A DNA stretch of 64,000 nt from an uncultured bacterium (GTDB taxonomy: Bacteria > Omnitrophota > Omnitrophia > Omnitrophales > Abzuiibacteriaceae): NCBI GenBank assembly GCA_964387845.1, contig CAYLXA010000002.1, forward strand, positions 32,001 through 96,000. Direction: 5' to 3'. The notes beneath the pieces are model-generated. The model worked only from the letters and a program-made list of their open reading frames with translations. It searched no databases and was not told where the DNA came from. The position numbers and the translations under genes were made by a program. How positions within the stretch are numbered: the stretch's first letter is position 1; each line of letters opens with the position of its first letter. This document shows, piece by piece, positions 6,469-26,956 of this stretch.

Positions 6469-6469
6469 C

Positions 6470-7516: not shown

Positions 7517-8238
7517 ACAAACGCCTGACCGATCCAGCACACATTGACGTGTTAATTATTTGCGGAGGGCTGGGGACGCGCCTCCGTTCTGTCGAGCCCG
7601 ATGCGCCCAAAGGCATGGTTGTTATTGAAGGAAAACCGTTTCTTGAAATTCTGATTGATCATTTGCGTCATTCCGGTTTTCGGCGTTTTATTCTCTGCAC
7701 CGGTTACGGCGCCAAACGTTTTCGGCAGCATTTTGAAGCGGCCAAACAGTCAGAAATTATATTTTCCGAAGAAGTAAAGCCGCTGGGCACGGCCGGAGCT
7801 GTCAAGCAAGCCGAAAAACTCATAAGCAGCGATCAGCAGTTGGTGTTAAATGGCGATTCTTTGTGCTTGGCGGATTGGCAGGAGCTATTACGCTTTCATG
7901 CATCGCATCAGGGGTTGGCAACGCTTTTGGTAACTCAGGACCGAGAGCGAACGGATGTGGGCGGAATCAAGTTTGATCACAACTTCGGCGTAACGCAATT
8001 TAAAGAAAAGGAAAAAGAATCGACCCCATATATTAATGCGGGTATTTATATTTTTGAGCGCCGGTTATTGGAATTGATTCCGAAAAATCAAAAAATTTCT
8101 TTGGAGGAACAAATTTTTCCAAAGCTGAACGAAACCCAACTGTTTGCTTGCGTATCATTAGCAACTGTGTATGATATTGGAACGCCCGAACGTTTAGAGA
8201 AATTTAAACAACTTTATTCTGCAGGAAAATTCAATTAA
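7513..8238 (+). CDS. sugar-phosphate nucleotidyltransferase, heptose-1-P guanylyltransferase (HddC)-like
   Basis: GTG start. LIICGGLGTRLRS…PK motif of NDP-sugar pyrophosphorylases. Overlaps the kinase by 4 nt. Confidence 0.7.
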   Translation: MNKRLTDPAHIDVLIICGGLGTRLRSVEPDAPKGMVVIEGKPFLEILIDHLRHSGFRRFILCTGYGAKRFRQHFEAAKQSEIIFSEEVKPLGTAGAVKQAEKLISSDQQLVLNGDSLCLADWQELLRFHASHQGLATLLVTQDRERTDVGGIKFDHNFGVTQFKEKEKESTPYINAGIYIFERRLLELIPKNQKISLEEQIFPKLNETQLFACVSLATVYDIGTPERLEKFKQLYSAGKFN

Positions 8239-8243
8239 ACGAT

Positions 8244-11002: not shown

Positions 11003-11968
11003 ATGAAAAAAATTTTAATCTGCGGCGGAACTGGTTTTATCGGCAGGAATTTGGTTGAGTATTTTGTCAAAAAACCAGATTTTGAAGTTTACGCAACTTG
11101 TTACAAGCGTCGTTCTCCCTTAATTCCAAAGGCTAAATTTAAGCGTATTGATTTAACAAATGTTGTGCAAGTTCAAGAAATTGTGAAGGGGATGGATGTT
11201 GTGGTTCAAGCCGCTGCCACAACCTCCGGCGTAAAGGATACGATTGAGGCGCCTTATGTGCACGTTACAGATAACGCCGTAATGAACTCCTTGATTTTTC
11301 GAGCGTGTTTCGAGCAAAAGGTGAAACACGTGATCTTTTTAAGCTGTACCGTGATGTATCCGAATCAGGAGGCGCCAGTTTCGGAAGAAGATATGAATTA
11401 TCAAATTACGGATAATTATTTTGGTGTCGGTTGGACAAAAGTTTACCTCGAGAAAATGAGCCAATTTTATTCGCGAATCGGAAGTGCTAAATATACCGCG
11501 ATTCGGCATTCCAATATTTACGGCCCTTATGATAAGTATGATCTTGAAAAATCACACGTTTTTGGCGCAACGGTTGCGAAAGTTGAAACTGCCAAGGACG
11601 GCAAAGTTGTGGTCTGGGGCACGGGCGCCCAAGAGCGCGATCTTTTATATGTGGATGACCTGTCCCGGTTTATTGATTTGGCAATTGAAAAGCAAACTGA
11701 AAAGTTTGAGCTGGTTAATGTTGGTTACGGAAAAAGCATTTCAATTGCTAATCTGGTCCAGTTGATTATTGACCGCTCCAAAAAGAATTTAAAGATTGAG
11801 TATGATCATTTAAAGCCTTCGGTTAACTTCAAGTTGGTTCTGAATATCGACCGCGCAAAGCGCATTTTTGGCTGGGAGCCGCAGGTGCCGCTTGAAGAAG
11901 GAATTGAAAGGAGTCTTGCGTGGTATCGAAAACATATTCAACCAATGTCTGCCGAAAAGATTAAATGA
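11003..11968 (+). CDS. NAD-dependent epimerase/reductase (second Fcl-like SDR)
   Basis: ICGGTGFIGRNL motif. An LSCTVMYP segment lies where Fcl has SSCIYP. The alternative start is 10994. Confidence 0.7.
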   Translation: MKKILICGGTGFIGRNLVEYFVKKPDFEVYATCYKRRSPLIPKAKFKRIDLTNVVQVQEIVKGMDVVVQAAATTSGVKDTIEAPYVHVTDNAVMNSLIFRACFEQKVKHVIFLSCTVMYPNQEAPVSEEDMNYQITDNYFGVGWTKVYLEKMSQFYSRIGSAKYTAIRHSNIYGPYDKYDLEKSHVFGATVAKVETAKDGKVVVWGTGAQERDLLYVDDLSRFIDLAIEKQTEKFELVNVGYGKSISIANLVQLIIDRSKKNLKIEYDHLKPSVNFKLVLNIDRAKRIFGWEPQVPLEEGIERSLAWYRKHIQPMSAEKIK

Positions 11969-14019
11969 AAAGCAAATTAATTTGCGCTGCCGTATTAGTG
12001 GCGCTGATTGTGATTTCATTTTACACCTACCGCTCCGGTGTCATTTCCGTGCCTCGCTCCGATCACTATGGGTTTATGGCGGAGAGGGAATACGCAGTTT
12101 CGGATACCGAGTTTTTGTTGAAGCAGTTGGTCTATAACCGGACCCGCGTCATCGCAAAGGGTGATTCTTTTTTGTTCAGGCCCGGAATGACCGGCACGCT
12201 CGCGCTTTTGGATATTTTTTTTCGGCATAATTTGTATGCGCTTGGCGCTTTCAGTATCCTCGCGCATGCTTTGACGGCTTTTTCATTGTTCTTATTGCTG
12301 AGTTTGTTTTTAAGGCGCTCTTTTGCGTTTATCCTATCCGTTGTATTTGCCACGCATCTGGCAGGTTTTGAAATGGTTTTTTGGCGCCATATCAGTCCTT
12401 ACATGTTTTGCCTGGTTTTTGTAGGATTGGCATTGTACGCGCTTGGCCGCTGGCTTCAGCCGCCCGAAAATCGAAATTGGCTTTTATTATTTTCATTCTG
12501 CCTTTTTTTATCTTCACTATTTCACGAAGTTGTTTTGCCGGCGATGGTTATCTTCTGTCTTTTATTTTTAGTTCTGCATTTTCAAAATCAATCAACGAAT
12601 CCATCTTATTTTAAATCATTGTCAATCGCGTGCCTGGTCCCGCTGGCTGCTAATTTGCTGCTCAACGTCGCTGGCCGGATCGCTTTTAGCAGCCAGGCCA
12701 ACCTGTTATTGAGTGATGCGGCGCAACCGGCAAGCGTTGCTTACGCCTCAAAATTTTTAAGCCACGCGGTTTACGTCGGGGGCCTGATTATCACTGCCTT
12801 TTTGGCGCCGAGCATCATTCGTTTCTCATTTATTAATTTGGATTTTCGGGCGGAGTGGGACTTTCTCAAAATTCCAGCGCCTGTTTTTTACACCGCCGGT
12901 TTTATTTTTCTTACATTGATCGCAGGGGCGTTAATTTATCTATATATTTTCAGAAAAAAGCTCGGTCAGCGACAGCTTTTTCCGATTTTTGCATTCGCGG
13001 GAATATTTTTGATTGTCACTTTTTTGGGACTAACGGTCGGGAGGGCCATTCCGCGCTCAATCGGTTATTTGAAAAACTCCACCTATTATTTCTATCTAAC
13101 CAATTACGCCCTTACAATCATCGTTGCTATGGGCTTGAGAAAAATCAGCAGCTTACCGTATAAAAATTTAAAAATCGGATTAGTGTTTTTCCTGCTCTGT
13201 GTTGCCGGTTATCAGATTAAAAGCGGTATTGCGGGAATCGAAAAGGCAATCAATGCTCGAGGTGATTACGATAAACAAATCGCTTCCAAAACACTCCGGG
13301 TTTGGTCAGAATTAAGCAAGCATCCGGAATATTGCTATGGTGGGACCGGGGCCGAAAGAGTTTCAAGCTTTGTGCCCAATGTTCTGCTGTACCGAAGGTC
13401 ATGCAATGCTTTCCCGGACAAAATCCCGCTCTATTTGCTCGAAAACGAAAAACGCGAACTTTGGTTTATGCAGTTGATTCCTGAGCAGATTGATCAGCAG
13501 GCCTATCGTTATGGGCAGATCAATAATGAGGGGCAAGCCGAGTTTTCCGCTCAATCAACCGATAACCAGCTCAGTTTTAGCGGTTTTTCTCTTAGCAATG
13601 CCGTCCATCATCCTATTTATTACGGCGCCCGGCTTCATGGGGGATTTGTCGGAGGTTTGGTATTTAACTATCACGACCCCGCCAATTTTTCAATCTTAGT
13701 GGCAAATGAACGTTACACTTATGTGCAATTTAACGAGAATGGAAACCCCTCGGAACCGTCGTATGTGGCGCAGCAGATTTTAGATCCGATCGCTTTTGAT
13801 TTGTCGATTCGGAGAATCGGCGGCAGGTATGTTGTATTCTATAACCGGACTTTGCTTGCAGTGATCAATGATGCTGTTTCCGAGGGACGAGTGGGGCTTT
13901 ATCGGAAGCCCCGTCATTCAGCAGGCGAGTATTTTACCGACGTGGTCTTGATTGATGCTTCAGAGGCCAAACAATCGCAGATGGGTGCTTTTGAACCTGT
14001 TTTTCAATTTCAATTTTAG
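11965..14019 (+). CDS. large polytopic membrane protein with a ~250-aa C-terminal soluble beta-rich domain (GT-C-like?)
   Basis: 684 aa. About 10 predicted TM segments in the first ~430 aa, then a hydrophilic C-terminal domain. 4-nt overlap with the upstream gene. Confidence 0.6.
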   Translation: MKSKLICAAVLVALIVISFYTYRSGVISVPRSDHYGFMAEREYAVSDTEFLLKQLVYNRTRVIAKGDSFLFRPGMTGTLALLDIFFRHNLYALGAFSILAHALTAFSLFLLLSLFLRRSFAFILSVVFATHLAGFEMVFWRHISPYMFCLVFVGLALYALGRWLQPPENRNWLLLFSFCLFLSSLFHEVVLPAMVIFCLLFLVLHFQNQSTNPSYFKSLSIACLVPLAANLLLNVAGRIAFSSQANLLLSDAAQPASVAYASKFLSHAVYVGGLIITAFLAPSIIRFSFINLDFRAEWDFLKIPAPVFYTAGFIFLTLIAGALIYLYIFRKKLGQRQLFPIFAFAGIFLIVTFLGLTVGRAIPRSIGYLKNSTYYFYLTNYALTIIVAMGLRKISSLPYKNLKIGLVFFLLCVAGYQIKSGIAGIEKAINARGDYDKQIASKTLRVWSELSKHPEYCYGGTGAERVSSFVPNVLLYRRSCNAFPDKIPLYLLENEKRELWFMQLIPEQIDQQAYRYGQINNEGQAEFSAQSTDNQLSFSGFSLSNAVHHPIYYGARLHGGFVGGLVFNYHDPANFSILVANERYTYVQFNENGNPSEPSYVAQQILDPIAFDLSIRRIGGRYVVFYNRTLLAVINDAVSEGRVGLYRKPRHSAGEYFTDVVLIDASEAKQSQMGAFEPVFQFQF

Positions 14020-14043: not shown

Positions 14044-15963
14044 ATGATTTTGTTTCCGGTTTTATTATTTGCGGCTTTGGTTCTGATTTTAAACGGCCAT
14101 CCGCAATTTCGAGTCAATGAACGCGATGATTGGCGTTATCAAACGGGTCTTGCATTTGTTGTGACGGGCGTCATCGCGGTTGCTGCGATTGAAGTGTTGA
14201 GCGTTTTTTCTGCGCTTACACAAAAAACCGTTGGCGTGACATGGGGAGCGCTGCTGTGCGTTGCTCTGTCTGTTTGGTTTTTTGGTTATCGAAAAACTCA
14301 GATCCTGCCTTCGATTTCCGGTTTTTCAGGTTTATTCTTAGGGCTTTTGTCCGGGATTTTTTTCCTCGTAATTATTACGAGCGTTGTTGCTCTTTTGGCT
14401 CCGCCCAATACATGGGATTCGCTGACGTATCACATGAGCCGGGTCGCGCATTGGGTCCAAAATAGAAGTGTCGGACACTATCCAACCAACATTTTAAGGC
14501 AATTGTATCATGCGCCAGGAGCCGAATTTATGATCTTGCAAGCCCAGCTCTTGAGCGGAGGCGACCGCTTTGCCAATATGATTCAATGGAGTTTTTATAT
14601 CGGCTGTGTTCTCACCAGTTCTTTGCTGACAAAGCAATTTGGATTTGACCGGTGGGCACAGCTGCTGACCGCGGTTTTTGCGTCAACGCTCCCGATGGCG
14701 ATTTTACAGGCTTCAAGCACGCAAAACGATCTGGCAGCCTCGTTCTGGCTTCTTGCAGCAGTTGTGTTTCTTCTGAGGCTGCAGAATCAATTTAATTGGA
14801 CAGATGCGTGCGGTGCCGGTGCCGGTATTGGGCTTGCGTTTCTGACAAAATCACTATCCTATGTTTACATTATTCCGTTCATAGCGTGGTTTGCTTGGGC
14901 TTGCGTCAGAAACAGGCAGTGGGGAAAGTTGTCAAAAACTGCGGCGTTAATTGCTGCGCTGGTTATCGTGATTAATCTGGGCCACTGGTCGCGCAATTTC
15001 GTACTTTTCCATCATCCGCTAGGGCCAATAAAAACAATAGATTTAACCAACGAGAAATTCGGCGTCCGGCCCGTGTTGTCTAACATAATTCGGGGCGCTG
15101 CCTCGCACGCGAGCTTTCCGATCATTGGTATTAACCACGAGCTGACCAAATGGATTTATGCGTTCCACCGTTCGCTTGGCATGGATGCCAATGATCCGAA
15201 GACAACCTATGATCCTAATTTTGGAAAATTTCAAATCCGTCCGCTTCACGCCCATGAAGATTCAGCGAGCAACCCCATTCATTTTTGGCTGATTGTGATT
15301 TGCGGGATTATTGCGCTGCGCAGGCGCGAGACTCGAAAAGAGCCAAAATTTATATTTTATCTTGCATCGGTCATTGCTGCCTTCCTGCTAATTTGCATTA
15401 TTTTCAAGTGGCAAGTGTGGATCAGCCGTTTGCAGCTGCCTCTTTTCTTTTTTTGGGCACCTGTGGCGGGTTCAGTGCTGTCTTTGATGAAAGCAAAAAG
15501 CGTATCTGGCGCAGTTGCCGTTTTTTTGCTGGTCAGCTCACTTTATTCAGCTTTCTTTAATTTTTCTCGGAGTTTTTTTAAGTGGCCTTTTGTTGACAAT
15601 ATGCCGCCCACTGTTTTTGAAGCAGGACGTGACATGCTGTATATGAATAACGGGGCTAACATTGTGAAGCTTTCATATTTACTTGCAACAAAACATATTG
15701 AATCGAAGCGCTATAAGAATGTCGGACTTATTGTTCATGAGGATGACTGGGAATATCCGTACTGGGCGATACTGCAAGCCAATCGGAATGCGATCCGGAT
15801 TGAACATATAGAAGTGGCGAATATATCGAGTAAAATAAAAAGAAAGCCTTTTCGGCCGGATGTTGTTATTGCATCAAAGCCAACGGATGGGCAAATCCGA
15901 CGCTATGAAGCCGAGTATGGTTCCGGCGAACAGATGGGAATTTTGTGGGTTTTTGGCCGGTAG
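14044..15963 (+). CDS. polytopic GT-C-type membrane glycosyltransferase (ArnT/PMT-like)
   Basis: ATG at 14044 preceded by GAGGTG. Many TM helices. Early loop PPNTWDSLTYHMSRVAHW resembles the GT-C acidic loop. Soluble C-terminal ~150 aa. Confidence 0.6.
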   Translation: MILFPVLLFAALVLILNGHPQFRVNERDDWRYQTGLAFVVTGVIAVAAIEVLSVFSALTQKTVGVTWGALLCVALSVWFFGYRKTQILPSISGFSGLFLGLLSGIFFLVIITSVVALLAPPNTWDSLTYHMSRVAHWVQNRSVGHYPTNILRQLYHAPGAEFMILQAQLLSGGDRFANMIQWSFYIGCVLTSSLLTKQFGFDRWAQLLTAVFASTLPMAILQASSTQNDLAASFWLLAAVVFLLRLQNQFNWTDACGAGAGIGLAFLTKSLSYVYIIPFIAWFAWACVRNRQWGKLSKTAALIAALVIVINLGHWSRNFVLFHHPLGPIKTIDLTNEKFGVRPVLSNIIRGAASHASFPIIGINHELTKWIYAFHRSLGMDANDPKTTYDPNFGKFQIRPLHAHEDSASNPIHFWLIVICGIIALRRRETRKEPKFIFYLASVIAAFLLICIIFKWQVWISRLQLPLFFFWAPVAGSVLSLMKAKSVSGAVAVFLLVSSLYSAFFNFSRSFFKWPFVDNMPPTVFEAGRDMLYMNNGANIVKLSYLLATKHIESKRYKNVGLIVHEDDWEYPYWAILQANRNAIRIEHIEVANISSKIKRKPFRPDVVIASKPTDGQIRRYEAEYGSGEQMGILWVFGR

Positions 15964-16031: not shown

Positions 16032-17042
16032 ATGATTCAAATCGGTGTAATCGGATGCGGGCAATGGGGGCCTAACCATATCCGCAATTTTACCAACTTA
16101 GAAGATAGCCGCGTGGCTGCCTGTTCCGATTTAGACTCAGTACGTTTAACCGCCATGTCAAAGCTTGTGAAGGGTATTGAAACCACGCGGAATTACCGAG
16201 ACATTCTCCACAACCCGCGCATTGACGCAGTGGTGATCTCCACTCCGGCTGCGCTTCATTACAAGATTGCGAAAGAAAGCCTATTAGCGGGCAAGGACGT
16301 GCTCTGCGAAAAACCGCTTTGCACCAAAGTTAGCGATGCGATCAAGCTGACGGAGCTTGCAAAAAAGCTCAAAAGAGTGTTGATGGTCGGGCATGTTTTT
16401 GTATTCAATCCGGGTATCCGAAAGTTAAAAGAACTGATTCAGAAGAAAAAATGCGGGCGCGTATATTATTTACATTCTGAACGGACCAACCTTGGGCCGT
16501 TCCGGCGCGATGTGAATGCAGTGTGGGATTTGGCCTGCCACGACGTTTATATTTTTAATTACTTACTGAATAGTTTTCCGATCGAGGTTACCGCGCGCGG
16601 AGGAAAGTATCTTCAGAGCAAAATCGAAGACGTTGCCTTTATATCGATGACTTATCCGAGCGGTGTTTTGGTGAACATCCATGTCAGCTGGCTGGATCCC
16701 AAAAAAATCAGGCAAATTACCGTCGTTGGAAATAAATCCATGATTACCTGGGATGATTTGGACAATGTCGGCCCGATTAAAATTTACGATAGCCAGGTTG
16801 TGCACAAGTATTACTACGAAACTTTCGGTGAATTTGCGCTGTTGGCGAGGGAAGGTGATATCACGATTCCTAAAATCGCGCTGCAGGAACCTTTAAAGAT
16901 CCAAGATTCCCATTTTTTGGAATGCGTTCAGAAAAGAAAGCAGCCCGCGGCGGATGGTGTTGCCGGTATCCAAACGGTAAAGGTGCTTACGGCCATTCAG
17001 AAATCTCTGGCAAAGCGGGGCAATCCGGTACGCGTCGGATGA
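16032..17042 (+). CDS. Gfo/Idh/MocA-family NAD(P)-dependent sugar oxidoreductase
   Basis: IGVIGCGQWGPNH Rossmann N-terminus. EKP motif (CEKPL). 336 aa. Confidence 0.8.
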   Translation: MIQIGVIGCGQWGPNHIRNFTNLEDSRVAACSDLDSVRLTAMSKLVKGIETTRNYRDILHNPRIDAVVISTPAALHYKIAKESLLAGKDVLCEKPLCTKVSDAIKLTELAKKLKRVLMVGHVFVFNPGIRKLKELIQKKKCGRVYYLHSERTNLGPFRRDVNAVWDLACHDVYIFNYLLNSFPIEVTARGGKYLQSKIEDVAFISMTYPSGVLVNIHVSWLDPKKIRQITVVGNKSMITWDDLDNVGPIKIYDSQVVHKYYYETFGEFALLAREGDITIPKIALQEPLKIQDSHFLECVQKRKQPAADGVAGIQTVKVLTAIQKSLAKRGNPVRVG

Positions 17043-17776
17043 AAGCGCTCATCATTGCGTGTGCCTATAATGAAGGTGTCAAATTTGAAGCCACGTGCGA
17101 TCGAATCGCGGCTTTTCTGAAAAAACGTGATAAAAGCCGTGTCGTAATTGACGTTCTTGTTATCGATGATGCTTCGAGCGATTCCGCGCCTAAGCAATCG
17201 GCATCCAAGCACGGATTCCCGTATTTACGAAATGAAAAGAGAAGCGGTATCGGTTTCTCAATTCGGCGCGGCTATGAATTTGGTATTCAAAAACAGTACG
17301 ATATCTTGATCACAATCGCGGGAAACAACAAGGACAATCCCGATGAATTGGATCAATTGATTGAACCCATTGTCAGCGGGAAAGCGGATTTTGTCCAAGG
17401 ATCCCGGTATTTGGCGGGCGGAAATTATGGTAACATGCCGTTTTATCGGCTTATTACGACACGCTATGTCCATCCTTGGCTATTTTCTTTGGTGGCGGGC
17501 AGGCGGATTACGGATACAACTAACGGTTTCCGGGCCGTGAAAAACTCAGTTTTGAAAGATGTTCGGATTGATTTGCGGCAAGACTGGTTGGATCATTACG
17601 AACTGGAACCCTATTTATTCTGCCGTGCAATACGGTTGGGTTTTCGTATTGCAGAGGTTCCGGTGACCAAGATTTATCCTGACAGAAAGTTAGGTTATTC
17701 TAAAATGGCTCCCATCACGGGTTGGTGGAGTATTTTGAGGCCTCTGGTGTATCTATTTTTTAATTTAAAAAAATAA
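17039..17776 (+). CDS. family-2 glycosyltransferase (Dpm1-like)
   Basis: ATG at 17039 overlaps the previous TGA (ATGA). IIACAYNEG…VIDDASSD is a GT2 DxD region. The longer track ORF from 16922 lies inside the upstream gene. Confidence 0.7.
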   Translation: MKALIIACAYNEGVKFEATCDRIAAFLKKRDKSRVVIDVLVIDDASSDSAPKQSASKHGFPYLRNEKRSGIGFSIRRGYEFGIQKQYDILITIAGNNKDNPDELDQLIEPIVSGKADFVQGSRYLAGGNYGNMPFYRLITTRYVHPWLFSLVAGRRITDTTNGFRAVKNSVLKDVRIDLRQDWLDHYELEPYLFCRAIRLGFRIAEVPVTKIYPDRKLGYSKMAPITGWWSILRPLVYLFFNLKK

Positions 17777-20700
17777 ATGATTTCCGAAACTACTTCGCCT
17801 TTACCTAATATTAAAACATCGATGAGACCTCGCACGCTGAGCTTGCTCGTCCTATCATTTTTCTTTGTGTCCGGCGCCTGCGGCTTAATGTATCAAGTCG
17901 TGTGGCTTCGGGTGATGGGCCTCGTTTTTGGAAACACGACCTATGCCACCAGTGCGGTACTGTCGGGTTACATGGCGGGATTGGGGCTGGGAGCGCTGTG
18001 CTTCGGCAAGTGGATTGACAAGCCGTCAGCAGGAGATCCGGTTAAGCTTTATGGAATTATGGAGGGCGGAGTCGGAGCTTACGCGCTTTTGACGCCGTTT
18101 ATTTGGTATTTCATCGATTGGATCAACATCGTTTTTTACCGCGCCTTTAATCCCGAATTTCTTCAATTCAGTCTATTCAAATTTGCAGTGTCATTTGTGT
18201 TTTTGTTCATTCCGACATTTTTGATGGGCGGCACGCTGCCGGTGTTAAGCAAATTTTATATAGAGCATCGCGATCAGATTGCGCACAAGGTGGGGATTTT
18301 ATATGCGCTCAATACGGCAGGCGCCGTGCTAGGCGTGATTTTCAGCGGTTTTTTTTGTTTGTATTATTTTGGCGTATGGCAAACCACGGTTTTGACAGCC
18401 GTTCTTAACCTTTTGATTTTTGCCGCATGCTGGTTCTGGATTAAGGGGAATGCTGCGGGCGCTAGCGCTTTGCCGCCCGAAATCGCCGTTCAAGAACTGC
18501 CGGCTCCATCAAAATCGCAGCCAAATGCGTACTATACGACGCTGCTTGTTTTATTTGGGATTTCCGGCGGCGTTTCCATGATGTATGAAATCGGATGGAC
18601 GCGCATACTCGCCATTGTCGTCGGAAGCTCTATCTACGCATTTTCGGTAATGCTGTCGACGTTTCTATTGGGCATCGCCCTCGGCAGCTTTTTGTTCAGC
18701 TGGCTCTCCAAGCGGATCAAAATCGACCTATCCATTTTTGCCACCTTGCAAGCCGCCACTGCATTATTTGCTTTTTTGGGCATGAATCAATTTGAAGAAA
18801 TGCCATACCGCTTTTTAAAGCTCTATCACTGGTCTAAGCACACACCGTTTTTAATCGAGCTTGGAAGATTCGCGCTTTGTACAATCGTTATGCTGGGCCC
18901 GACCATTTGCATCGGCGCCATGTTTGCTTGCTTTATTCATTTGTATCATCAGCAAGAGCGTTTGGGGGGCGATATTGGCACGGCTTATTTTGCGAATACT
19001 GTGGGGACTATTTTTGGTTCGGCGCTGACCGGCTTTTTGATTATCCCAATCCTGGGAATTTACAAAACACTCATGGCCGCCGCCGGATTAAATGCCGCGA
19101 TCGGCGCGATTGCGTTTATGATGAGTTTGCCTAACCGGCAACTCAGGCGGACAATTGCTTTTTCCGTCGTGTTTGTTTTTACTTGGGTTGGTGCTAGCCT
19201 AGCGCGCCCGTGGAATAAATCAGTAATCACAAGCGGGGCGGTGGTTCGTCCGAACATGCATAACGCCAATTCGCAAGAAGAGTTTATCCGGTCTATGGAA
19301 AACCGGCTTAATCTGTTCTATAAGGAAGGGACGAGCGCAACGGTCAGCGTTAACCGAGTGCGCGATGTTATTTCACTCGCAGTGAATGGAAAAACAGATG
19401 CCTCTAACGGAACCGACGCGTTCAATCAATTTTTGCTTGGCCACTTGCCGATGCTGTTAAATCCGGATGCGCAAAAGGTACTTACCATCGGCCTGGGAAG
19501 CGGTTCGACGGTTGCCGCAGTCGCGTCTTACGCGGTCAAACAGATTGATTGCGTCGAACTGGAAGCTGCCGTGGTTGAGGGCGCCAGATTTTTTTCGGAA
19601 CTGAATCGAAATGTGCTAAACGACCCCAGGCTTCGCATGATTGTGAATGACGGCCGCAATTACTTAAAAATCAATCCTACGCTGTATGATGTCATCATTT
19701 CCGAACCTTCAAATCCATGGATGGCCGGTGTCGCTAATTTGTTTTCGCGCGAGCATTACGAAACAATGAAAGCGCGTCTCGCGCCGCAGGGGATCGTGTG
19801 CCAATGGCTTCACGCTTACAGCATGTCCGATCAGGATATGCGTATGATTATTCGAACATTCACGCTGGTATTTCCAAATACAAGTCTATGGACATCGAAT
19901 TATCCTGACCTGCTTCTGCTCGGGTCGAATGAACCGATTGAAATAGATTATCTCGAATTAAAAAAATCCTTTAACCGTCCGGAGGTTTTACAGGATTTTG
20001 AACCCTACGGAATTAAAACAGCGGATGGTTTTCTAGGCGCTTTTTGGCTGGATGACGAAGCGTTGCGTAGTTTTTCCGAAGGAGCCCGAATCAACAGCGA
20101 TAATTACCCCTACCTAGAATTTTCGGCACCGCGCCATTTGTATGACGATACGGTGAGCAGTAATTATCATTTAATCAACGCTTTTGCGTCGAAGCAGTAT
20201 CCAAAAATTAAAAACCTGAATCCTCCGATTGATCAAAATATTGAGTTTCATGTCAATATTGCCAGAAGCAACTTTTACCGGAAAATATACGGGAGGGTCC
20301 AAAGCGAACTTGACTTCATCAAAGAGCTGGATCCTAAAAACCCGGACTTGATCGAAATTTTGGGAATGGTTCAGTATGAGATGGGGAACTTTACAGACGC
20401 AGAGCGGCTGTTATCTGAATCTTTGATTCAAAATCCTGATTCACCCGAAACCCACTTCTACTTTGGATTGATCCAGCAAAGGAAGAAGCGCCACGAAAAT
20501 GCGATATTTTCTTTTGGTGAAGCGATACAGCTCGATTCGCGTGCCGCTAAGTATTACATAGCGCTGGGTGATTCATTGATGGAAATGAATGCGTTTGTCT
20601 CTGCGGTTGATGCTTTTGATCAGGCTTTGATTTATTCGCCTGCCAAGTTTGACTTATTGATTCGGAAGGCTTCCGCTCTCAGCCGTATTGTGCCGATCAA

Positions 20701-21001
20701 CGAGCAAATCAGATTTACGGAAGAGTTGCTTGAAATGTACCCGAAACATGTGGCGCTTTATGAAATGTTGGGAAATCTTTATCAAAATAACCATCAGCGC
20801 GATGACGCGGAAAAAATTTATTTAAGGATGATTCAAGAGTTTCCCCTGGAGCCCAACAGTTATTTGCAGCTCGGCATTTTATACGGCAAGACGGGCTCAA
20901 TGATGAAAGCAAAAGAGCAGCTCAAGAAGGCTGTACGCTATGATCCGGAACTGTTAAAAAACCCTGAAATTCAAAAAGTACTTCAGTATAAAGGTGCCTA
21001 A
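17777..21001 (+). CDS. fused polytopic membrane domain / spermidine-synthase-like aminopropyltransferase domain / C-terminal TPR repeats
   Basis: 1074 aa. About 12 TM helices (aa 1-480). The central segment VLTIGLGSGSTV…DVIISEPSNPW…GIVCQWL matches the SpeE fold motifs GGGDG…D(S/P)xDP. The last ~300 aa are TPR-like repeats. Confidence 0.7.
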   Translation: MISETTSPLPNIKTSMRPRTLSLLVLSFFFVSGACGLMYQVVWLRVMGLVFGNTTYATSAVLSGYMAGLGLGALCFGKWIDKPSAGDPVKLYGIMEGGVGAYALLTPFIWYFIDWINIVFYRAFNPEFLQFSLFKFAVSFVFLFIPTFLMGGTLPVLSKFYIEHRDQIAHKVGILYALNTAGAVLGVIFSGFFCLYYFGVWQTTVLTAVLNLLIFAACWFWIKGNAAGASALPPEIAVQELPAPSKSQPNAYYTTLLVLFGISGGVSMMYEIGWTRILAIVVGSSIYAFSVMLSTFLLGIALGSFLFSWLSKRIKIDLSIFATLQAATALFAFLGMNQFEEMPYRFLKLYHWSKHTPFLIELGRFALCTIVMLGPTICIGAMFACFIHLYHQQERLGGDIGTAYFANTVGTIFGSALTGFLIIPILGIYKTLMAAAGLNAAIGAIAFMMSLPNRQLRRTIAFSVVFVFTWVGASLARPWNKSVITSGAVVRPNMHNANSQEEFIRSMENRLNLFYKEGTSATVSVNRVRDVISLAVNGKTDASNGTDAFNQFLLGHLPMLLNPDAQKVLTIGLGSGSTVAAVASYAVKQIDCVELEAAVVEGARFFSELNRNVLNDPRLRMIVNDGRNYLKINPTLYDVIISEPSNPWMAGVANLFSREHYETMKARLAPQGIVCQWLHAYSMSDQDMRMIIRTFTLVFPNTSLWTSNYPDLLLLGSNEPIEIDYLELKKSFNRPEVLQDFEPYGIKTADGFLGAFWLDDEALRSFSEGARINSDNYPYLEFSAPRHLYDDTVSSNYHLINAFASKQYPKIKNLNPPIDQNIEFHVNIARSNFYRKIYGRVQSELDFIKELDPKNPDLIEILGMVQYEMGNFTDAERLLSESLIQNPDSPETHFYFGLIQQRKKRHENAIFSFGEAIQLDSRAAKYYIALGDSLMEMNAFVSAVDAFDQALIYSPAKFDLLIRKASALSRIVPINEQIRFTEELLEMYPKHVALYEMLGNLYQNNHQRDDAEKIYLRMIQEFPLEPNSYLQLGILYGKTGSMMKAKEQLKKAVRYDPELLKNPEIQKVLQYKGA

Positions 21002-21954
21002 TGGAAAAGTTTAACTATGCGCTGAGTGTTATCGTCCCATTTTTCAATGAAGAACAATCATTGCCGGGAATTATAAAAGGTGCGCAAGCAGTTTTGAGCC
21101 ATTTTTCACAGCAAAGCGAAATCATTTTTGTAGATGACGGCAGTGCGGATGCGGGTATTCAGATTGTCAAAAATGAGGCCAAATCAGATAAGCGTATTAA
21201 ATTGGTAGCGTTCAAAAAAAATTTCGGGCAGACCGCTGCCTGGGCTGCCGGTATTGATCATGCCAAGGGTGACGTTATTGCATTTTTGGATGCGGATTTA
21301 CAAAATGACCCGGCAGACATTCTGATGCTTGCAAAAAAACTTGGCGAAGGTTTTGATGTTATCAGTGGCTGGCGGAAGGACAGAAAGGATAGTCTCTTAA
21401 CGAGGCGCATTCCGTCACAGATCGCAAACTGGCTGATTTCAACCGTTACGGGTGTGCATTTGCATGACTACGGATGCTCTTTGAAGCTCTATCGCGCCGA
21501 AATTTTACGCGGCGTAAAGCTTTATGGAGAAATGCACCGCTTTCTGCCTGCTTACGCGGCTTGGGAAGGTGCGCGGATCACTGAAGTAATCGTCAATCAC
21601 CAAGAGCGGCGGCACGGTGTAAGTAAATACGGATTAGGAAGAATTTCAAAAGTAATCCTGGATCTCACGACCGTTTCTTTTCTGGGCGGTTTTGCGACAA
21701 AGCCTATTTATTTCTTCGGGCGGCTCGGTTTTGTGCTATTCCTTCTTGGTTTGGCGACCTTAGGCCTAGTGGCTTATCGTGTTTTGATTTTACAAAATAA
21801 AGAAGCAACGCCTGCGGTCTTTATGATGGTCGTATTTTTCATCTCTTCAATTCAGCTGATTTTAATGGGGTTGCTTGCTGAAATGGTGATGCGGGTTTAT
21901 CACCAAGGCCAGGAGAGGCCGGTTTATCGGATTTCAGAAAAAATCAATTTTTAA
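21001..21954 (+). CDS. family-2 glycosyltransferase, ArnC/GtrB-like polyprenyl-phosphate sugar synthase with C-terminal TM helices
   Basis: SVIVPFFNEE…FVDDGSAD…DADLQ motifs. Two C-terminal hydrophobic helices as in ArnC/GtrB. Confidence 0.75.
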   Translation: MEKFNYALSVIVPFFNEEQSLPGIIKGAQAVLSHFSQQSEIIFVDDGSADAGIQIVKNEAKSDKRIKLVAFKKNFGQTAAWAAGIDHAKGDVIAFLDADLQNDPADILMLAKKLGEGFDVISGWRKDRKDSLLTRRIPSQIANWLISTVTGVHLHDYGCSLKLYRAEILRGVKLYGEMHRFLPAYAAWEGARITEVIVNHQERRHGVSKYGLGRISKVILDLTTVSFLGGFATKPIYFFGRLGFVLFLLGLATLGLVAYRVLILQNKEATPAVFMMVVFFISSIQLILMGLLAEMVMRVYHQGQERPVYRISEKINF

Positions 21955-21973
21955 TTATCGCTAGGGCTTCACC

Positions 21974-23875
21974 GTGTGCGGAATCTACGGTTTTATCCAC
22001 CTGTCACAAAATTCCAAAATAGACGCAGGAATCTTAAATCAAATGAGCGGCTCGCTCAGGCATCGCGGGCCAGACGGGGAAGGCGCCTGGGTTGATGGTG
22101 CTGTCGCGTTTGGTCACCGGCGTCTGAAAATCATCGATTTAAGCGATAATGCCCGTCAGCCCATGTCTAACCGGGACGGCAGTATATGGATAACGTTTAA
22201 CGGAGAGATTTATAATTATCAAGATCATATTTCAGCGTTAAAGCAGAAGGGGTATCAATTTAAATCTACCTCAGACACTGAGATTATTTTGCACCTCTAC
22301 GAAGAGCATGGAATTGATTGCTTGAAGCACCTAAACGGGATGTTTGCGTTCGCGATTTGGGACAAGCGCAAAAACGAAGGGTATTTGGTCCGGGACCGTT
22401 TGGGTATTAAACCCCTCCATTATATCGAAGTGAACCGTAAGCTCATTTTTGCATCCGAAATCAAAGCAATTCTGAAGCATCCGGATGTAAGCCGTGAAGT
22501 TGATTTTCAATCGCTCGGTCAATATCTCAGTTTTGACTATGTTCCCGCGCCGAATACGATTTTGAGAAACGTTAAAAAGTTGGAGCCGGGACACTGCCTT
22601 AAGATCAAGCAAGGTTCCGTAGAGAGCATTCAATATTGGTCAGTTTCATATTCCGATCCAATAGAAAAAAAATCCGCAGCTGAATACGCGGAAGCCTTGC
22701 TGGATGTATTAAAAAGATCGGTGCGCCGTCATTTGATCTCCGATGTGCCGCTGGGGGCTTTTTTGAGCGGCGGAATTGACTCAAGTTCAATTTGTGTGCT
22801 GATGCGCGAACTTGGTGTTTCGAAAATCAAAACTTTTCATATCGGATTTGAAGAAGAATCCTTTGACGAAACGAAGTATGCGCGGCAAGTAGCGGCATAC
22901 CTGGGCACGGAGCATCATTCTGAAATTTTATCGGTCACAAAAGCGCGGGATTTGATTCCCGATATGATGGACTTTTTGGATGAGCCTTTTGGGGACGCTT
23001 CGTTTCTTCCAACCCTGCTACTATCCCAATTTACAAAAAAGCATGTGACAGTTTCGCTTAGCGGTGATGGTGGCGATGAAATTTTTGCCGGGTACCCAAC
23101 TTACCAAGCGCATTCGGTTGCTCGTAGTCTTGGCTGGATCCCGAAGTCCGTCTGGCAGCTGATGCGCGGCCTGACATCGCAGCTGCCTGTTTCAGACGAG
23201 AATTTAAGCACCGATTATAAGCTAAAAAAGTTTATCGATGGGATGGAGGAAGAGAATATGATTGCACGGCATTATCGGTGGTTGGGATCTTTTGATCCGA
23301 AAAGCCAGGCCGACTTGCTGTCAGCAGATGTTTGCGCTGCTTTGGGCGCTTTTGATCCGTATCAAATTGCAAAGGAATACGGTAGTGTAACTCGTCCGGA
23401 AGATTGGCTGGGCCGCCTTTTACATTGTGATCAAAGGTTTTATTTACAGGACAATATGCTGGTCAAGATTGACCGCGCAACGATGGCTGCGTCTCTGGAG
23501 GGAAGGGTCCCGTTTTTGGATCATGAAGTGGTTGAATTTGCAACCAAACTGCCGTCAAATTTGAAGTTGAACGGCCTGATAACCAAATACATTCTGAAGA
23601 AAACCATGAAACATCATCTTCCGGATGCCATCATCAACCGGAAGAAAAAGGGTTTTGGAATTCCTGTCGCCAAGTGGTTCAAAGCCGAGTTGAAGCCATT
23701 TTTGAAAGCAATATTTGAGCCGGCCAAAATTAAGCGTGAGGGATTCTTAAATCCGGCAGCCGTATCAAAATTATTAAGCGAGCATTTTGAAGGGAAGTTC
23801 GATCATAGAAAACAAATCTATACACTGCTTAATTTTGAACTTTGGCTTGAGCGGTATATTAGAAAATCGGACTAA
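21974..23875 (+). CDS. asparagine synthase (glutamine-hydrolysing), AsnB-family amidotransferase
   Basis: GTG start directly before Cys (MCGIYG). Ntn glutamine amidotransferase domain plus SGGIDSS PP-loop. 633 aa. Confidence 0.85.
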   Translation: MCGIYGFIHLSQNSKIDAGILNQMSGSLRHRGPDGEGAWVDGAVAFGHRRLKIIDLSDNARQPMSNRDGSIWITFNGEIYNYQDHISALKQKGYQFKSTSDTEIILHLYEEHGIDCLKHLNGMFAFAIWDKRKNEGYLVRDRLGIKPLHYIEVNRKLIFASEIKAILKHPDVSREVDFQSLGQYLSFDYVPAPNTILRNVKKLEPGHCLKIKQGSVESIQYWSVSYSDPIEKKSAAEYAEALLDVLKRSVRRHLISDVPLGAFLSGGIDSSSICVLMRELGVSKIKTFHIGFEEESFDETKYARQVAAYLGTEHHSEILSVTKARDLIPDMMDFLDEPFGDASFLPTLLLSQFTKKHVTVSLSGDGGDEIFAGYPTYQAHSVARSLGWIPKSVWQLMRGLTSQLPVSDENLSTDYKLKKFIDGMEEENMIARHYRWLGSFDPKSQADLLSADVCAALGAFDPYQIAKEYGSVTRPEDWLGRLLHCDQRFYLQDNMLVKIDRATMAASLEGRVPFLDHEVVEFATKLPSNLKLNGLITKYILKKTMKHHLPDAIINRKKKGFGIPVAKWFKAELKPFLKAIFEPAKIKREGFLNPAAVSKLLSEHFEGKFDHRKQIYTLLNFELWLERYIRKSD

Positions 23876-25812
23876 GTTTTCCGAAACGAAGCTGTTGTAA
23901 CGGAATCGTAAAACACCATCAAGATCTCATCAATCGGGATATCGGCCGTCAACTTAGGGTTCAAAATTTCAAATCGACCGTCCGTAACATTAACGAAACC
24001 AAAAGGCGCGATTTCACGGCTTGGCGCGGCAACCTGAACATAAACTTCGTAAATTCCGTCCGGAAATCCATCCCCTTGAATCAAATACCCCTCCTGCGTT
24101 AAACCGCTTTTTGCCGCTGCCTTTGGAAGCGATTCAGAGAAAAATTCATAACCAGTTTCATCTGCTATTCGGGGTTTTGCTGATAGCCGATAGGTATTAA
24201 CCTGCTCAATCAAAAGAGGTGCCTGTGTTTTGGGAATAGATTCCGTGATATAGAGCGTCGGATCACGATTAATAATAATCACATCGCCTTTTTTAATGAA
24301 TTGGTAAGAGCCGGGCCCTAAAACCAGTGGCTCGCTGGGGTTGTTGGCACGTTGCGGTAAATACGTCGTGATGGGCAGGTGATAGACTGGTTTTCCGGTA
24401 TAAAATTCGATCGCGTTACCGTAGAAGTGGTAGATGTATGTGACTTTATCGTTGATGTCAAAAACATAATCTTTGGGATGAATGGTATAGTAAGGCCCGA
24501 CCCAAAAAATACTAGAATTTTGAGACAAGCTTTTTGCGGCCTTGCTGATCTTGCCTGAAAAATCGTTCGAATAAACGGGATCGGCGAATTTTATGCACTC
24601 TGAAAATCCTTTCTGAAGAGGCGAGAAGGCAAACACAAAGCACAGCATGCCCGCAAAAGCATTCTTGATTTGATCCGATTTGATTCTGAGAGCTATAAAT
24701 TGAATAATTGCCAATGCGCCTTTCAGCGTGAAATAAAACACGGGCGGAAAGAGCGGAAACAAATAACGAGCTTCTCTGACGGCAATTACATAAGTTTGAA
24801 ATAGAAAAAAGGCAAAAAACCAAATGATGAAAAATAGTGACAATGGCCGCCTGTCCTTCGCTGACAGAAAAATCCCACCAACAAAAAGGAGATGGAGCGG
24901 AAAAGGAATCGATTTTAATAAAAATACATAGTTCCAGTTCGGGTTTTCCCAGCCTGTATTTTTTTGATACTGCGCAATCAGGTCTTGGACGAATTTCAGA
25001 ATTGACGAGTGCCATGGTGCTAAATCCAAAAGCGTATAGAGCAGGCCGGCCAGTAAGAAATAAACCGTAACCGGCACGATGAATAAAGCGATTAATTTCA
25101 CAAGCAAACCTACTTGTCGAGGCTTGCCCGTGCTCTTGATTTGAAAAACACGGTTAATGATTTCGTAGATAAGAAAAACGCCGAATAGAAACGGAATTAA
25201 GTTGTAGCGGATCCCGATTGCAAACATAGTCAAAATTCCAGCACTCCACAAAAAACCGGCATTTCCGGAGTTTTGACTCTTCCAATATAAATAAAATGCA
25301 GCCGAAGTGAATAAGGTGGCCGCAATGTCTTCTTTGGCAAACGGAGCATAGTGAATTAAGAGCGTATTGCCGGCCAGAAATAGAGTTCCGAGCAGCGCTT
25401 CGGTTTTACCAAATTCAAACCGCAAGAACTTGAAAAACACGAAAAGCAAAAGCAAGAACAAAGCAACGCAGGTCAGATGGACGGTTATCAGCGAGAAGTC
25501 GGGGCTTTGTGCCCATTGCTCTAAAATAAAGATCGGAGAAAGAAGGATCGGAAAAATAAAAGGTCTTTTCCAATAATAAGTCAGCGATTCATCCAATGTC
25601 GCAATTTTTCGGGCGTTGACCAGGGTTTCATAGGCGTCAAAAAAGTCAATTCTAAGGTGAAGCGCAACCCAAAATAGGTATAAGCCGAGAGCGACCAATA
25701 AGGAAACGATAATGAAGTTGATTTTGCTTCGAATGCGGTCTGTAAACGGGAGTGTTGCTTCAGGCAAGTTCAATCGGTGTACCTTTGCTGTTTTCGAAGC
25801 GCTAATCGACAA
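23872..25812 (-). CDS. polytopic GT-C-type membrane glycosyltransferase (ArnT/PMT-like)
   Basis: 646 aa, highly hydrophobic. Early loop DFFDAYETLVNARKIATLDESLTYYWKRPF is GT-C-like. Convergent with asnB, with stop codons overlapping. Confidence 0.6.
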   Translation of the reverse strand: MSISASKTAKVHRLNLPEATLPFTDRIRSKINFIIVSLLVALGLYLFWVALHLRIDFFDAYETLVNARKIATLDESLTYYWKRPFIFPILLSPIFILEQWAQSPDFSLITVHLTCVALFLLLLFVFFKFLRFEFGKTEALLGTLFLAGNTLLIHYAPFAKEDIAATLFTSAAFYLYWKSQNSGNAGFLWSAGILTMFAIGIRYNLIPFLFGVFLIYEIINRVFQIKSTGKPRQVGLLVKLIALFIVPVTVYFLLAGLLYTLLDLAPWHSSILKFVQDLIAQYQKNTGWENPNWNYVFLLKSIPFPLHLLFVGGIFLSAKDRRPLSLFFIIWFFAFFLFQTYVIAVREARYLFPLFPPVFYFTLKGALAIIQFIALRIKSDQIKNAFAGMLCFVFAFSPLQKGFSECIKFADPVYSNDFSGKISKAAKSLSQNSSIFWVGPYYTIHPKDYVFDINDKVTYIYHFYGNAIEFYTGKPVYHLPITTYLPQRANNPSEPLVLGPGSYQFIKKGDVIIINRDPTLYITESIPKTQAPLLIEQVNTYRLSAKPRIADETGYEFFSESLPKAAAKSGLTQEGYLIQGDGFPDGIYEVYVQVAAPSREIAPFGFVNVTDGRFEILNPKLTADIPIDEILMVFYDSVTTASFRKT

Positions 25813-26956
25813 CGACGACTTTTGCCGGAGGGAACCCGTTAAATGCGGCTACGGCACTGGCAGCCGAATAAGCTCCGATATTCTTGACGTAAATCACATT
25901 ACCGACGTCAAGCTCCGGAAGTTCCTCGCTGGCTGAAATCGTATCAAATGAATCGCAAGTCGGGCCGGCAAGCGTGCTTAAAAACCTTTGACCGCGGCGG
26001 AGAGTTTTGAATTCGTACTTGCAGTGATCAAAAACAATGCCCGAGAAATCCTGATAAATCCCATCATTCAAATAATAGTAATTTTTGTTATTCCGGAATG
26101 TGCGCCCCACGACTTCAGTCACTAAAATTCCTGCGGGGCCCACCAAAAAACGGCCCGGCTCAGCCATGAATTTCACGTCTTTATCAAACAAACGCTTCAT
26201 TTCGGTTTTGATGGCGCGCGCCATATTTTCGAATGTTGCGTGCTGGTCGTTGTCAAAGTGGCGGATCGGAAAACCGCCGCCGATATCAACCGTATTAAGA
26301 TAGATTCCTTCACGTTTTAATTCCTTGAAAATCGCCGACGTGACTTCGAGGGCTTGGACGTAGTTGCCGGTATTGGTGCACTGAGAGCCGACGTGAAAAC
26401 AGATGCCGGCTGGTGTTAAGCCGAGCTGTTTCGCTTTTTTCAGCAGGAAAGTGGCCTGATCGGGATCGGCGCCGAATTTGAGCGATAATTCGACTATGCT
26501 GCCCAAATTCGCGACCTTGATTCTTAGTAATACTTTGGCTCGCGGGCAATATTTGGCAATTTTGTATAGCTCGGGCTCATTGTCGAAAACGGTAAATTTT
26601 ACGCGGCAGGCACGCGCAAGCTTTAAATCCTCGGCAGATTTAATCGGATTGGCGAAGATGACTTGATCGGGCGAAGCGCCGAGGTCAATCACAGTCTTCA
26701 TTTCGGCTGCGCTCGCAACGTCAAATTTGGTGTTCAGCCGCAAAAATGTTTTGATGATTTCGGGGTTTGGATTGGCTTTGATCGCGTAATAAATCTGGAC
26801 CTGCGGCAGGTGTTTCTTGAAAAGCTGGTATTGCCTAATCAAAATACTGCGCTTGATCAGCATAAAAGGTGTCGAATGCTTCTTCAGAGATTTTCGGATC
26901 AGCGTTTCGACACCGTTCCCGGAAATTTGAGCTGTCTTGGTTAGGGTAGCGGGCAT
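25802..26956 (-). CDS. PLP-dependent fold-III decarboxylase, eukaryotic-type ornithine (or lysine/ornithine) decarboxylase-like
   Basis: Motifs YYAIKANPNP, FDVAS, VIFANPIK, KFGA, FHVGSQC and VDIGGGFP align with ODC family signatures. 384 aa. Confidence 0.7.
   Translation of the reverse strand: MPATLTKTAQISGNGVETLIRKSLKKHSTPFMLIKRSILIRQYQLFKKHLPQVQIYYAIKANPNPEIIKTFLRLNTKFDVASAAEMKTVIDLGASPDQVIFANPIKSAEDLKLARACRVKFTVFDNEPELYKIAKYCPRAKVLLRIKVANLGSIVELSLKFGADPDQATFLLKKAKQLGLTPAGICFHVGSQCTNTGNYVQALEVTSAIFKELKREGIYLNTVDIGGGFPIRHFDNDQHATFENMARAIKTEMKRLFDKDVKFMAEPGRFLVGPAGILVTEVVGRTFRNNKNYYYLNDGIYQDFSGIVFDHCKYEFKTLRRGQRFLSTLAGPTCDSFDTISASEELPELDVGNVIYVKNIGAYSAASAVAAFNGFPPAKVVVVD

Follow-up and report, generated by a model that had tools for sequence, protein, structure and literature searches.

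A spermidine synthase-like protein fused to a transporter fold in Omnitrophota: a candidate envelope-facing alkyltransferase

What is the function of a protein that joins a transporter-like membrane domain, a spermidine synthase (SpeE)-like domain and tetratricopeptide repeats (TPR) in a single chain, and whose gene lies between two family 2 glycosyltransferase (GT2) genes? The question is raised by an open reading frame (ORF) of 1074 aa (17777..21001, + strand, ATG start) in a 64-kb stretch of DNA from an uncultured Omnitrophota bacterium (contig CAYLXA010000002.1), hereafter the window; residue numbers refer to the 1074-aa product and nucleotide positions to the window. The initial annotation had described such a fusion and proposed that it transfers aminopropyl or polyamine groups onto a membrane or periplasmic substrate. 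Its description of the gene is correct, apart from small corrections. The view that the protein works outside the cytoplasm and is an abnormal spermidine synthase is supported, whereas the aminopropyl donor and the functional link to the GT2 genes are poorly supported. Our preferred reading, to which we assign a probability of roughly 0.4, is an envelope-facing alkyltransferase that would depend more probably on S-adenosylmethionine (SAM) than on decarboxylated SAM (dcSAM), would be supplied with its donor by the fused major facilitator superfamily (MFS) half, and would act on an acceptor chosen by the TPR tail.

Pfam searches and a full-length AlphaFold2 model (86-sequence alignment; pLDDT 92.5, pTM 0.90), together with the match to the NCBIfam family NF037959, bore out the fusion of polytopic membrane, spermidine synthase-like and TPR parts; the domain annotation that had been suggested thus recovered PF01564, an MFS fold and TPR families alike. 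The motifs quoted earlier are also present (GLGSGST at 19490..19510, SEPSNPW at 19700..19720, and IVCQWL). Two details needed correction: the N-terminal polytopic domain stands, but the model contains 13 membrane helices (a 12-helix MFS fold plus one, TM13) rather than 12, and the TPR repeats stand, but as 7 hairpins over about 250 aa (residues 822-1070) rather than about 300 aa.

AlphaFold2 helices, conservation and Foldseek delimited an MFS N-half (TM1-6, residues 18-229; 17828..18463, + strand) and a C-half that repeats it (TM7-12, residues 250-449; 18524..19123, + strand). The two six-helix halves align with each other at 26% identity (E 6e-19), revealing an internal duplication; a 6+6 repeat of this kind is the classic MFS duplication. 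A Foldseek search with the model of residues 1-484 returned 224 MFS matches in the PDB (E<=0.001, TMt 0.6-0.7, up to 0.71), with SfMCT, NorA, VMAT2 and G6PT among the best. As modelled, residues 18-449 are a genuine 12-helix MFS fold assembled from two homologous six-helix halves. A GT-C-like membrane domain was also considered and was ruled out by the fold search, and the ORF gave no Pfam match to PMT or PMT_2.

We then compared the conserved residues of the two halves. Y39-x3-W43-x-R45 in the N-half corresponds to Y270-E271-x2-W274-x-R276 in the C-half, and the halves have in common the motifs Y-E/Q-x2-W-x-R (TM1/TM7), P-T-x3-G (TM4/TM10) and N-T-x-G (TM5/TM11). R45, E96, E271 and R276 are buried within helices and nearly invariant, and N179/T180 and N407/T408 are also conserved; charged and polar intra-helix residues of this kind are as expected of a working transporter. 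The loop between TM2 and TM3 (G72-A-L-C-F-G77-K-W-I-D81-K, with D81 in 107 of 119 relatives) bears some resemblance to MFS motif A (G-x3-D-R/K-x-G-R-R/K).

The MFS fold is followed by TM13 (LRRTIAFSVVFVFTWVGASLA, residues 456-476; 19142..19204, + strand), which was assigned from AlphaFold2 helices and from hydrophobicity in relatives. It is strongly hydrophobic, remains hydrophobic in 84 of 86 relatives and is preceded by R454, R457 and R458; the SpeE-like domain starts about 5 residues after its end. Averaged over the 86 relatives, Lys plus Arg residues numbered 20.0 in the loops taken as inside and 4.2 in those taken as outside, with the inside count exceeding the outside count in every one of the 86 sequences. 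The N and C termini of MFS proteins are both cytoplasmic; taken with the additional helix and the alternating Lys/Arg-rich loops, this predicts a periplasmic location for the SpeE-like and TPR domains. The earlier idea of a periplasmic or membrane acceptor thereby gains independent support from predicted topology. The sole structural hint on a docking face is an outer loop (residues 337-356) whose conformation differs between the full-length and the N-terminal-only models.

The SpeE-fold domain (residues 477-812; 19205..20212, + strand) was defined by PF01564, alignments to SpeE structures in the PDB, Foldseek and conservation. PF01564 (Spermine_synth) matched residues 553-712 at 81.4 bits (cutoff 22.9), and the top Foldseek matches were SpeE structures (TMt 0.62-0.75, about 20-25% identity). 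The domain consists of an N-terminal beta domain (strands 511-543), a Rossmann core and a conserved C-terminal subdomain with the motif N-S/T-D-N-x-P-x-L-E-F-x-A-P. Models of the enzymes proper scored far below their cutoffs, at 85.5 bits for TIGR00417 (cutoff 249.55), 96.4 for NF002010 (cutoff 260) and 151.8 for NF002956, the membrane form PRK03612 (cutoff 472).

We mapped the active site by alignment to Arabidopsis thaliana spermidine synthase 1 (AtSPDS1) and Thermotoga maritima SpeE, and counted conservation in 119 sequences; the roles of AtSPDS1 Asp131, Asp201, Gln107, Asp204 and Glu236 are taken from PMC6514230. The adenosine-binding residues are invariant: G572, G574, the ribose-binding Glu594 (119/119) and the adenine-binding Asp625 (119/119), with the stacking residues L/I595 and L655 also kept. 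Those that set SpeE apart as an aminopropyltransferase have changed. Motif I, GGGDGG in SpeE, reads GLGSGST (19490..19510, + strand; alignment, conservation, PMC3725402 and PMC6514230), which replaces the dcSAM-amine-binding Asp131 by Ser575 (118/119). Motif IV, (V)D-S-S-D-P-I in SpeE, reads SEPSNPW (19700..19720, + strand; alignment and conservation) and is invariant across phyla; in it the catalytic Asp201 becomes Glu643 (116/119) and Asp204, a ligand of the distal amine of putrescine, becomes Asn646 (113/119), with W648 present in 118 of the 119. Glu236, the other distal-amine ligand, becomes His679 (92/119), and Tyr106 of the polyamine groove is Thr or Asn at position 550 in all 119. Only Gln107, a second dcSAM-amine ligand, is retained (Gln551, 117/119). 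Five dcSAM or putrescine ligand positions are thus altered with respect to AtSPDS1. The initial annotation had named full conservation of these residues as the outcome that would speak for an ordinary spermidine synthase; we found them replaced, and this, with the low equivalog scores, supports its view that the protein is no ordinary synthase of free spermidine.

The kept adenosine residues and the strictly conserved SEPSNPW loop give the site the look of a working active site that takes an adenosyl-sulfonium donor. In amino-methyltransferases, a (D/N/S)-P-P-(Y/F/W) motif occupies the position of this loop. The acceptor, judged from the altered ligands, looks like something other than a simple diamine. 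As for the donor, the Asp of GGGDG binds the aminopropyl amine of dcSAM and excludes SAM (PMC6514230, PMC3725402). Mutating it in spermidine synthase (D103I) abolished activity and created weak SAM-dependent methyltransferase activity, and V106T, three residues later, strongly raised that activity by hydrogen-bonding the SAM carboxylate (PMC3725402). The family carries Thr578 at this Val-to-Thr switch position in 116 of 119 sequences; with Ser575, both positions are in the SAM-type state of the switch from spermidine synthase to plant putrescine N-methyltransferase (plant PMT), which makes SAM a more likely donor than dcSAM. An aminopropyl donor, as first proposed, becomes less likely with the loss of the dcSAM-amine Asp, with Thr578 at the switch position and with the lack of a SAM decarboxylase (AdoMetDC) gene in the loci surveyed below.

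Behind the SpeE-like domain follows the TPR region (residues 822-1070; 20240..20986, + strand), assigned from Pfam, TPR matches in the PDB and AlphaFold2 helices. It comprises 14 helices that pair into 7 hairpins over residues 822-1055, plus a capping helix. A dozen Pfam TPR families matched over residues 850-1058 (TPR_2 at 63.5 bits, TPR_1 at 54.9 bits), and the PDB matches included consensus-TPR (E 3e-35) and the TPR of OGT.

How widespread is this protein? It scored 119.5 bits against NF037959, 'fused MFS/spermidine synthase' (cutoff 40; residues 266-709 covered), and the fold searches placed an MFS-type membrane domain ahead of the SpeE-like domain in one chain, as that name says. The architecture itself is therefore already annotated and not new. 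We take NF037959 to be COG4262, 'predicted spermidine synthase with an N-terminal membrane domain'. A word-indexed search returned 2683 homologues (E<=1e-10); the best 120 of them, from Omnitrophota, Verrucomicrobiota, Methylomirabilota and Deltaproteobacteria, are mostly 1000-1100 aa long with the same Pfam content as the ORF, and the top ones share its full architecture. With homologues in this number and the best of them having the full architecture, the fusion is no chance product. Several homologues at about 50% identity carry the NCBI name 'fused MFS/spermidine synthase', and many relatives carry the JGI name 'spermidine synthase'. A scan for SEPSNPW-type patterns, sampling one genome per species, confirmed relatives in at least 584 species, with phyla that also include Planctomycetota, Acidobacteriota, Nitrospinota, Myxococcota, Bacteroidota and Ignavibacteriota, and HMMER, run exhaustively with only the SpeE-like domain as query, gave 5625 clusters (50% identity) at E<=1e-30.

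More distant members occur in the cultured Aliivibrio wodanis (WP_192957862.1), Cupriavidus metallidurans CH34 and Ensifer adhaerens. The C. metallidurans member lies on the CH34 chromid NC_007974.2 (4831-7503 of our locus L087) and the E. adhaerens member at 4218-6818 of locus L088; these proteins of 866-890 aa have GLGTGIT and ITLEPPPPS instead of GLGSGST and SEPSNPW, and the gene table of the plasmid collection, which is incomplete, lists no feature at either place. We also looked for short forms devoid of the MFS part and bearing a signal peptide, as proof of a periplasmic location. The two candidates (P0163 and P0237) were rejected, as one adjoins a scaffold gap and the other a contig end, and MFS sequence runs in frame upstream of both SpeE-like parts. 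Both being assembly artefacts, the fusion of MFS and SpeE-like domains appears obligate in the family. Literature searches on fused MFS/SpeE proteins, COG4262, and membrane, periplasmic or TPR spermidine synthases found no characterisation of the family. The protein thus belongs to a very large, widespread, already annotated and uncharacterised bacterial family.

We next consider the genes around the ORF. As first described, it lies between two GT2 genes, which end at 17776 and begin at 21001. The upstream GT2 (17039..17776, + strand; Pfam, NCBIfam and relatives) resembles polyprenyl-phosphate hexose transferases, and its stop at 17776 abuts the ATG of the ORF. Its start is most likely at 17039 (245 aa) in place of 16922: the latter overlaps the preceding GFO/IDH/MocA oxidoreductase gene by 121 nt, whereas 17039 gives an ATGA overlap and matches the gene calls in relatives. 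The downstream GT2 (21001..21954, + strand) is ArnC-like, with two C-terminal membrane helices (NF007986, 205.7 bits, below cutoff); the overlap reported for this junction is real, a TAATG in which the last A of the TAA stop is the A of the ATG at 21001. An AsnB-type amidotransferase gene follows 19 nt later (21974-23875, + strand); it scored 606.9 bits against TIGR03108 (XrtA/PEP-CTERM amidotransferase), below the cutoff of 816.9, and its 3' end overlaps that of a convergent GT-C gene by 4 nt.

This gene order (PMT_2, GFO, GT2, the ORF, GT2, AsnB; convergent homospermidine synthase, decarboxylase and PMT genes) is kept at 70-72% identity. The relatives at 70% identity carry a class I SAM methyltransferase gene (268 aa; 14181-14987 in loci L081 and L082) between the ArnC-like GT2 and AsnB genes; the gap in the window is only 19 nt (21955-21973), and this extra gene is therefore absent from it.

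For the family as a whole, we searched 24 window genes by BLAST against the ORFs of 75 family loci and clustered the genes all against all, and ran Pfam scans on 81 same-strand immediate flanking genes and 57 polytopic neighbours. None of the window neighbours (GT2, GT-C, AsnB, homospermidine synthase) recurred in the 75 other loci, which include Omnitrophota relatives at about 50% identity. The GT2 layout as a clue to function therefore holds for the 70-72% identity relatives and fails in those 75 loci: the arrangement is lineage-specific and cannot define the function of the family, and we dropped it as a guide. The flanking genes were heterogeneous (8 TPR proteins; 4 each of FGE-sulfatase, ABC, pilin-like and VWA proteins). 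Among the polytopic neighbours, 9 PMT_2 proteins and about 12 TPR-bearing ones recurred weakly, and in one further locus PMT_2+TPR, TMTC-like and YfhO genes surround the family member; these are a weak hint of a link between the family and periplasm-facing GT-C enzymes. Searches by tblastn that used three forms of AdoMetDC as queries gave no match, either in the window (64 kb) or in about 87 loci of the family. True speE genes usually adjoin speD, as do two ordinary speE comparators from the plasmid collection (Azospirillum and Leptospira), which carry GGGDG and D-S-x-D-P.

The convergent polyamine genes noted earlier were confirmed by matches to solved enzymes: a homospermidine synthase (26964-28415, - strand; E 3e-102 to solved homospermidine synthases) and a Lys/Orn decarboxylase (25802-26956, - strand; E 2e-82 to the Selenomonas enzyme). 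An identity as carboxyspermidine dehydrogenase and decarboxylase was rejected on the same matches. They are followed by a PMT/PMT_2 GT-C membrane enzyme of 646 aa (23872-25812, - strand; Pfam), and the three form one tightly packed minus-strand operon with an 11-nt overlap between the decarboxylase and GT-C ORFs; the trio is also kept in locus L081 (70% identity). Polyamine synthesis genes in one operon with a periplasm-facing glycosyltransferase are unusual. Homospermidine synthase makes homospermidine with NAD and needs no dcSAM. A deoxyhypusine-synthase-family gene (35411-36532, + strand; PF01916, 294 bits) lies between NUDIX hydrolase and epimerase genes, and with homospermidine synthase the window holds two distinct enzyme types that make homospermidine-type products elsewhere.

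Two further polytopic ORFs may be divergent GT-C or polymerase-type enzymes. One (11965-14019, + strand; 684 aa, about 10 membrane helices; no Pfam or NCBIfam match) lies directly upstream of a PMT_2 GT-C gene in the operon of the fusion gene itself, and the other (60853-62499, + strand; 548 aa, about 9 membrane helices) had no match in a scan against Pfam only. Further upstream, a sugar-modification cluster (2356-10978, + strand) encodes thiamine pyrophosphate-dependent E1 alpha and beta subunits, a DegT aminotransferase, a GHMP kinase, a nucleotidyltransferase, a B12-binding radical SAM enzyme and an L-2-hydroxyglutarate-oxidase-like flavoprotein, an unusual combination that suggests the synthesis of a non-standard nucleotide sugar.

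How might such a protein work? In the model that we favour, the SpeE-fold and TPR domains would sit in the periplasm, where the SpeE fold would bind an adenosyl-sulfonium donor, SAM more probably than dcSAM, and move an alkyl group (methyl, possibly aminocarboxypropyl or aminopropyl) onto a nitrogen nucleophile, with Glu643 as the putative base and Asn646-Pro-Trp648 holding the acceptor. The periplasm is without SAM, and the MFS half would therefore most plausibly deliver the donor, carrying it over the membrane and passing it to the enzyme; the TPR tail would select a macromolecular envelope acceptor, protein or glycan. The periplasmic face is also where GT-C (PMT_2) and ArnC-like enzymes work, and in the lineage of the window the gene may have come to be part of an operon for polyprenyl-phosphate sugar transferases and GT-C enzymes. 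Extending the proposal to the whole family, as a self-contained extracytoplasmic machine in which SAM or dcSAM leaves the cytoplasm through the MFS half and the SpeE fold uses it to N-alkylate a protein or glycan of the envelope that the TPR tail selects, is tentative and in our judgement somewhat improbable. Several points weigh against the favoured model. We know of no SAM-dependent enzyme in the bacterial periplasm and of no MFS exporter of SAM or dcSAM, and a literature search found no precedent for a periplasmic methyltransferase. The periplasmic placement is a prediction, dcSAM is a possible donor given the retained Gln551 (one of three dcSAM-amine ligands), the conserved pocket could serve binding instead of catalysis, and, with no partner common to more than about 10 of the 75 loci, no conserved neighbour points to an acceptor.

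If the pocket did serve binding, the protein would be a pseudoenzyme or receptor whose periplasmic SpeE fold takes up an adenosyl compound (methylthioadenosine or SAM) or a polyamine and feeds or gates the MFS half. The problem of a SAM-free periplasm would then vanish, and several observations would fit: invariant adenosine-binding residues in a domain that has lost the canonical catalytic Asp residues, an MFS core with the conserved charges typical of an active transporter, and no conserved partner enzyme nearby. We nevertheless consider this unlikely, as the strictly conserved Glu at the catalytic position and the invariant SEPSNPW look catalytic, the TPR tail, about 250 aa long, points to a macromolecular partner, and substrate-binding domains fused to MFS proteins are not known as an established class. 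The MFS half might instead handle the acceptor, flipping or presenting a lipid- or polyprenyl-phosphate-linked molecule to the outer domain in the manner of MFS lipid flippases. The location of the gene between two polyprenyl-phosphate GT2s in a window with no evident separate small flippase gene, the conserved Arg residues in TM1 and TM7, which could bind phosphate, and the lipid-transporting MFS proteins among the fold matches (SPNS2, MHAS2168) are all compatible with such a role; but those matches do not separate MFS subfamilies, the source of the adenosyl donor would go unexplained, and the GT2 context is limited rather than family-wide, which together make the proposal highly doubtful.

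The proposal that the enzyme is a dcSAM-dependent aminopropyl (polyamine) transferase, decorating the glycan, lipid or protein made by the flanking GT2 and GT-C enzymes and fed by the nearby decarboxylase and homospermidine synthase genes, draws on the tight operon with stop/start overlaps on both sides, on synteny kept at 70-72% identity, and on the presence of homospermidine synthase, Lys/Orn decarboxylase and a PMT-type GT-C in one convergent operon. Gln551 and the acidic Glu643 also remain at two of the three dcSAM-amine positions, and the predicted periplasmic site fits a surface acceptor. We regard it as quite unlikely all the same: the GGGDG Asp is Ser in all but one of the sequences, and the equivalent mutation abolishes spermidine synthase activity (PMC3725402). 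AdoMetDC genes were found neither in the window nor in the other loci searched, the nearby homospermidine synthase works without dcSAM, and the GT2, GT-C, AsnB and homospermidine synthase neighbours are missing from the 75 other loci. Taking the database name literally, the protein would be an ordinary spermidine or polyamine synthase, anchored in the membrane with its catalytic domain on the cytoplasmic side and coupled to the export of polyamines. The SpeE fold and PF01564 match, the 'spermidine synthase' label on many JGI relatives and an MFS half that could export polyamine agree with this, yet all SpeE equivalog cutoffs were missed, five of the positions that bind dcSAM or putrescine carry other residues, the domain is placed outside by TM13 and the positive-inside rule, and speD linkage is lacking, in contrast to true speE genes; we find it scarcely credible.

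The names 'spermidine synthase' and 'fused MFS/spermidine synthase' have been propagated to thousands of proteins in most diderm phyla. With the dcSAM and diamine residues gone, SAM-type residues present and a predicted periplasmic face, the family name probably misleads on both chemistry and location; if so, it is an error to treat these genes as speE when polyamine pathways are reconstructed. A further question that the family raises is one of cofactor supply, namely how a Rossmann-fold adenosyl-binding enzyme obtains its cofactor outside the cell, and the fusion to a transporter suggests an answer. Were the SAM-exporting machine real, both its SAM-dependent enzyme and its SAM exporter would be the first of their kind shown to work in the bacterial periplasm. 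Cultured carriers, among them Cupriavidus metallidurans CH34 (chromid, at about 1.132 Mb), Ensifer adhaerens, Aliivibrio wodanis (pAWOD_2) and Anaeromyxobacter terrae SG22, make experiments feasible.

How does the protein compare with known systems? NF037959, whose cutoff it passed, has the same order of MFS-type membrane domain and SpeE-like domain, but is a database label only; the ORF differs by its full duplicated 12-helix form and its 250-aa TPR tail, and the distant cultured members have ITLEPPPPS where the ORF has SEPSNPW. With NorA/VMAT2-type drug or amine:H+ antiporters and other MFS proteins, it has in common the 12-helix fold, the 6+6 repeat and conserved acidic and basic residues inside helices, and its TM2-TM3 loop resembles motif A; identity to them is only 12-19%, and the ORF adds TM13 and a 600-aa outer domain. 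The eukaryotic TMTC O-mannosyltransferases and the bacterial PMT_2+TPR proteins likewise place a polytopic domain before a TPR region on the non-cytoplasmic side. In these proteins the membrane part is a GT-C glycosyltransferase working with a lipid-linked sugar, whereas the ORF has an MFS fold and a Rossmann SpeE-type catalytic module; PMT_2+TPR-type proteins recur near family members, and PMT_2 genes flank the ORF itself.

SpeE (T. maritima 1INL/1JQ3 and A. thaliana SPDS1 6O65) shares the two-domain fold with the ORF, which retains the adenosine-binding Glu and Asp as well as Gln551 and His556. In the ORF, GGGDG has become GLGSG, D-S-S-D-P has become E-P-S-N-P, Glu236 has become His and Tyr106 Thr or Asn; unlike SpeE, the domain sits behind 13 membrane helices, is predicted to be extracytoplasmic and has no adjacent speD. 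Plant PMT is a SAM-using enzyme that evolved from spermidine synthase, and its cofactor switch is in the same state as that of the ORF, with a non-acidic residue for the GGGDG Asp and a Thr three positions on. In the plant enzyme Gln79 has become Thr, and Asp204 and Glu236, which bind putrescine, are still present, whereas the ORF family keeps Gln551 and alters the Asp204 and Glu236 positions. Plant PMT is also soluble, and its likeness to the family reflects logic rather than ancestry.

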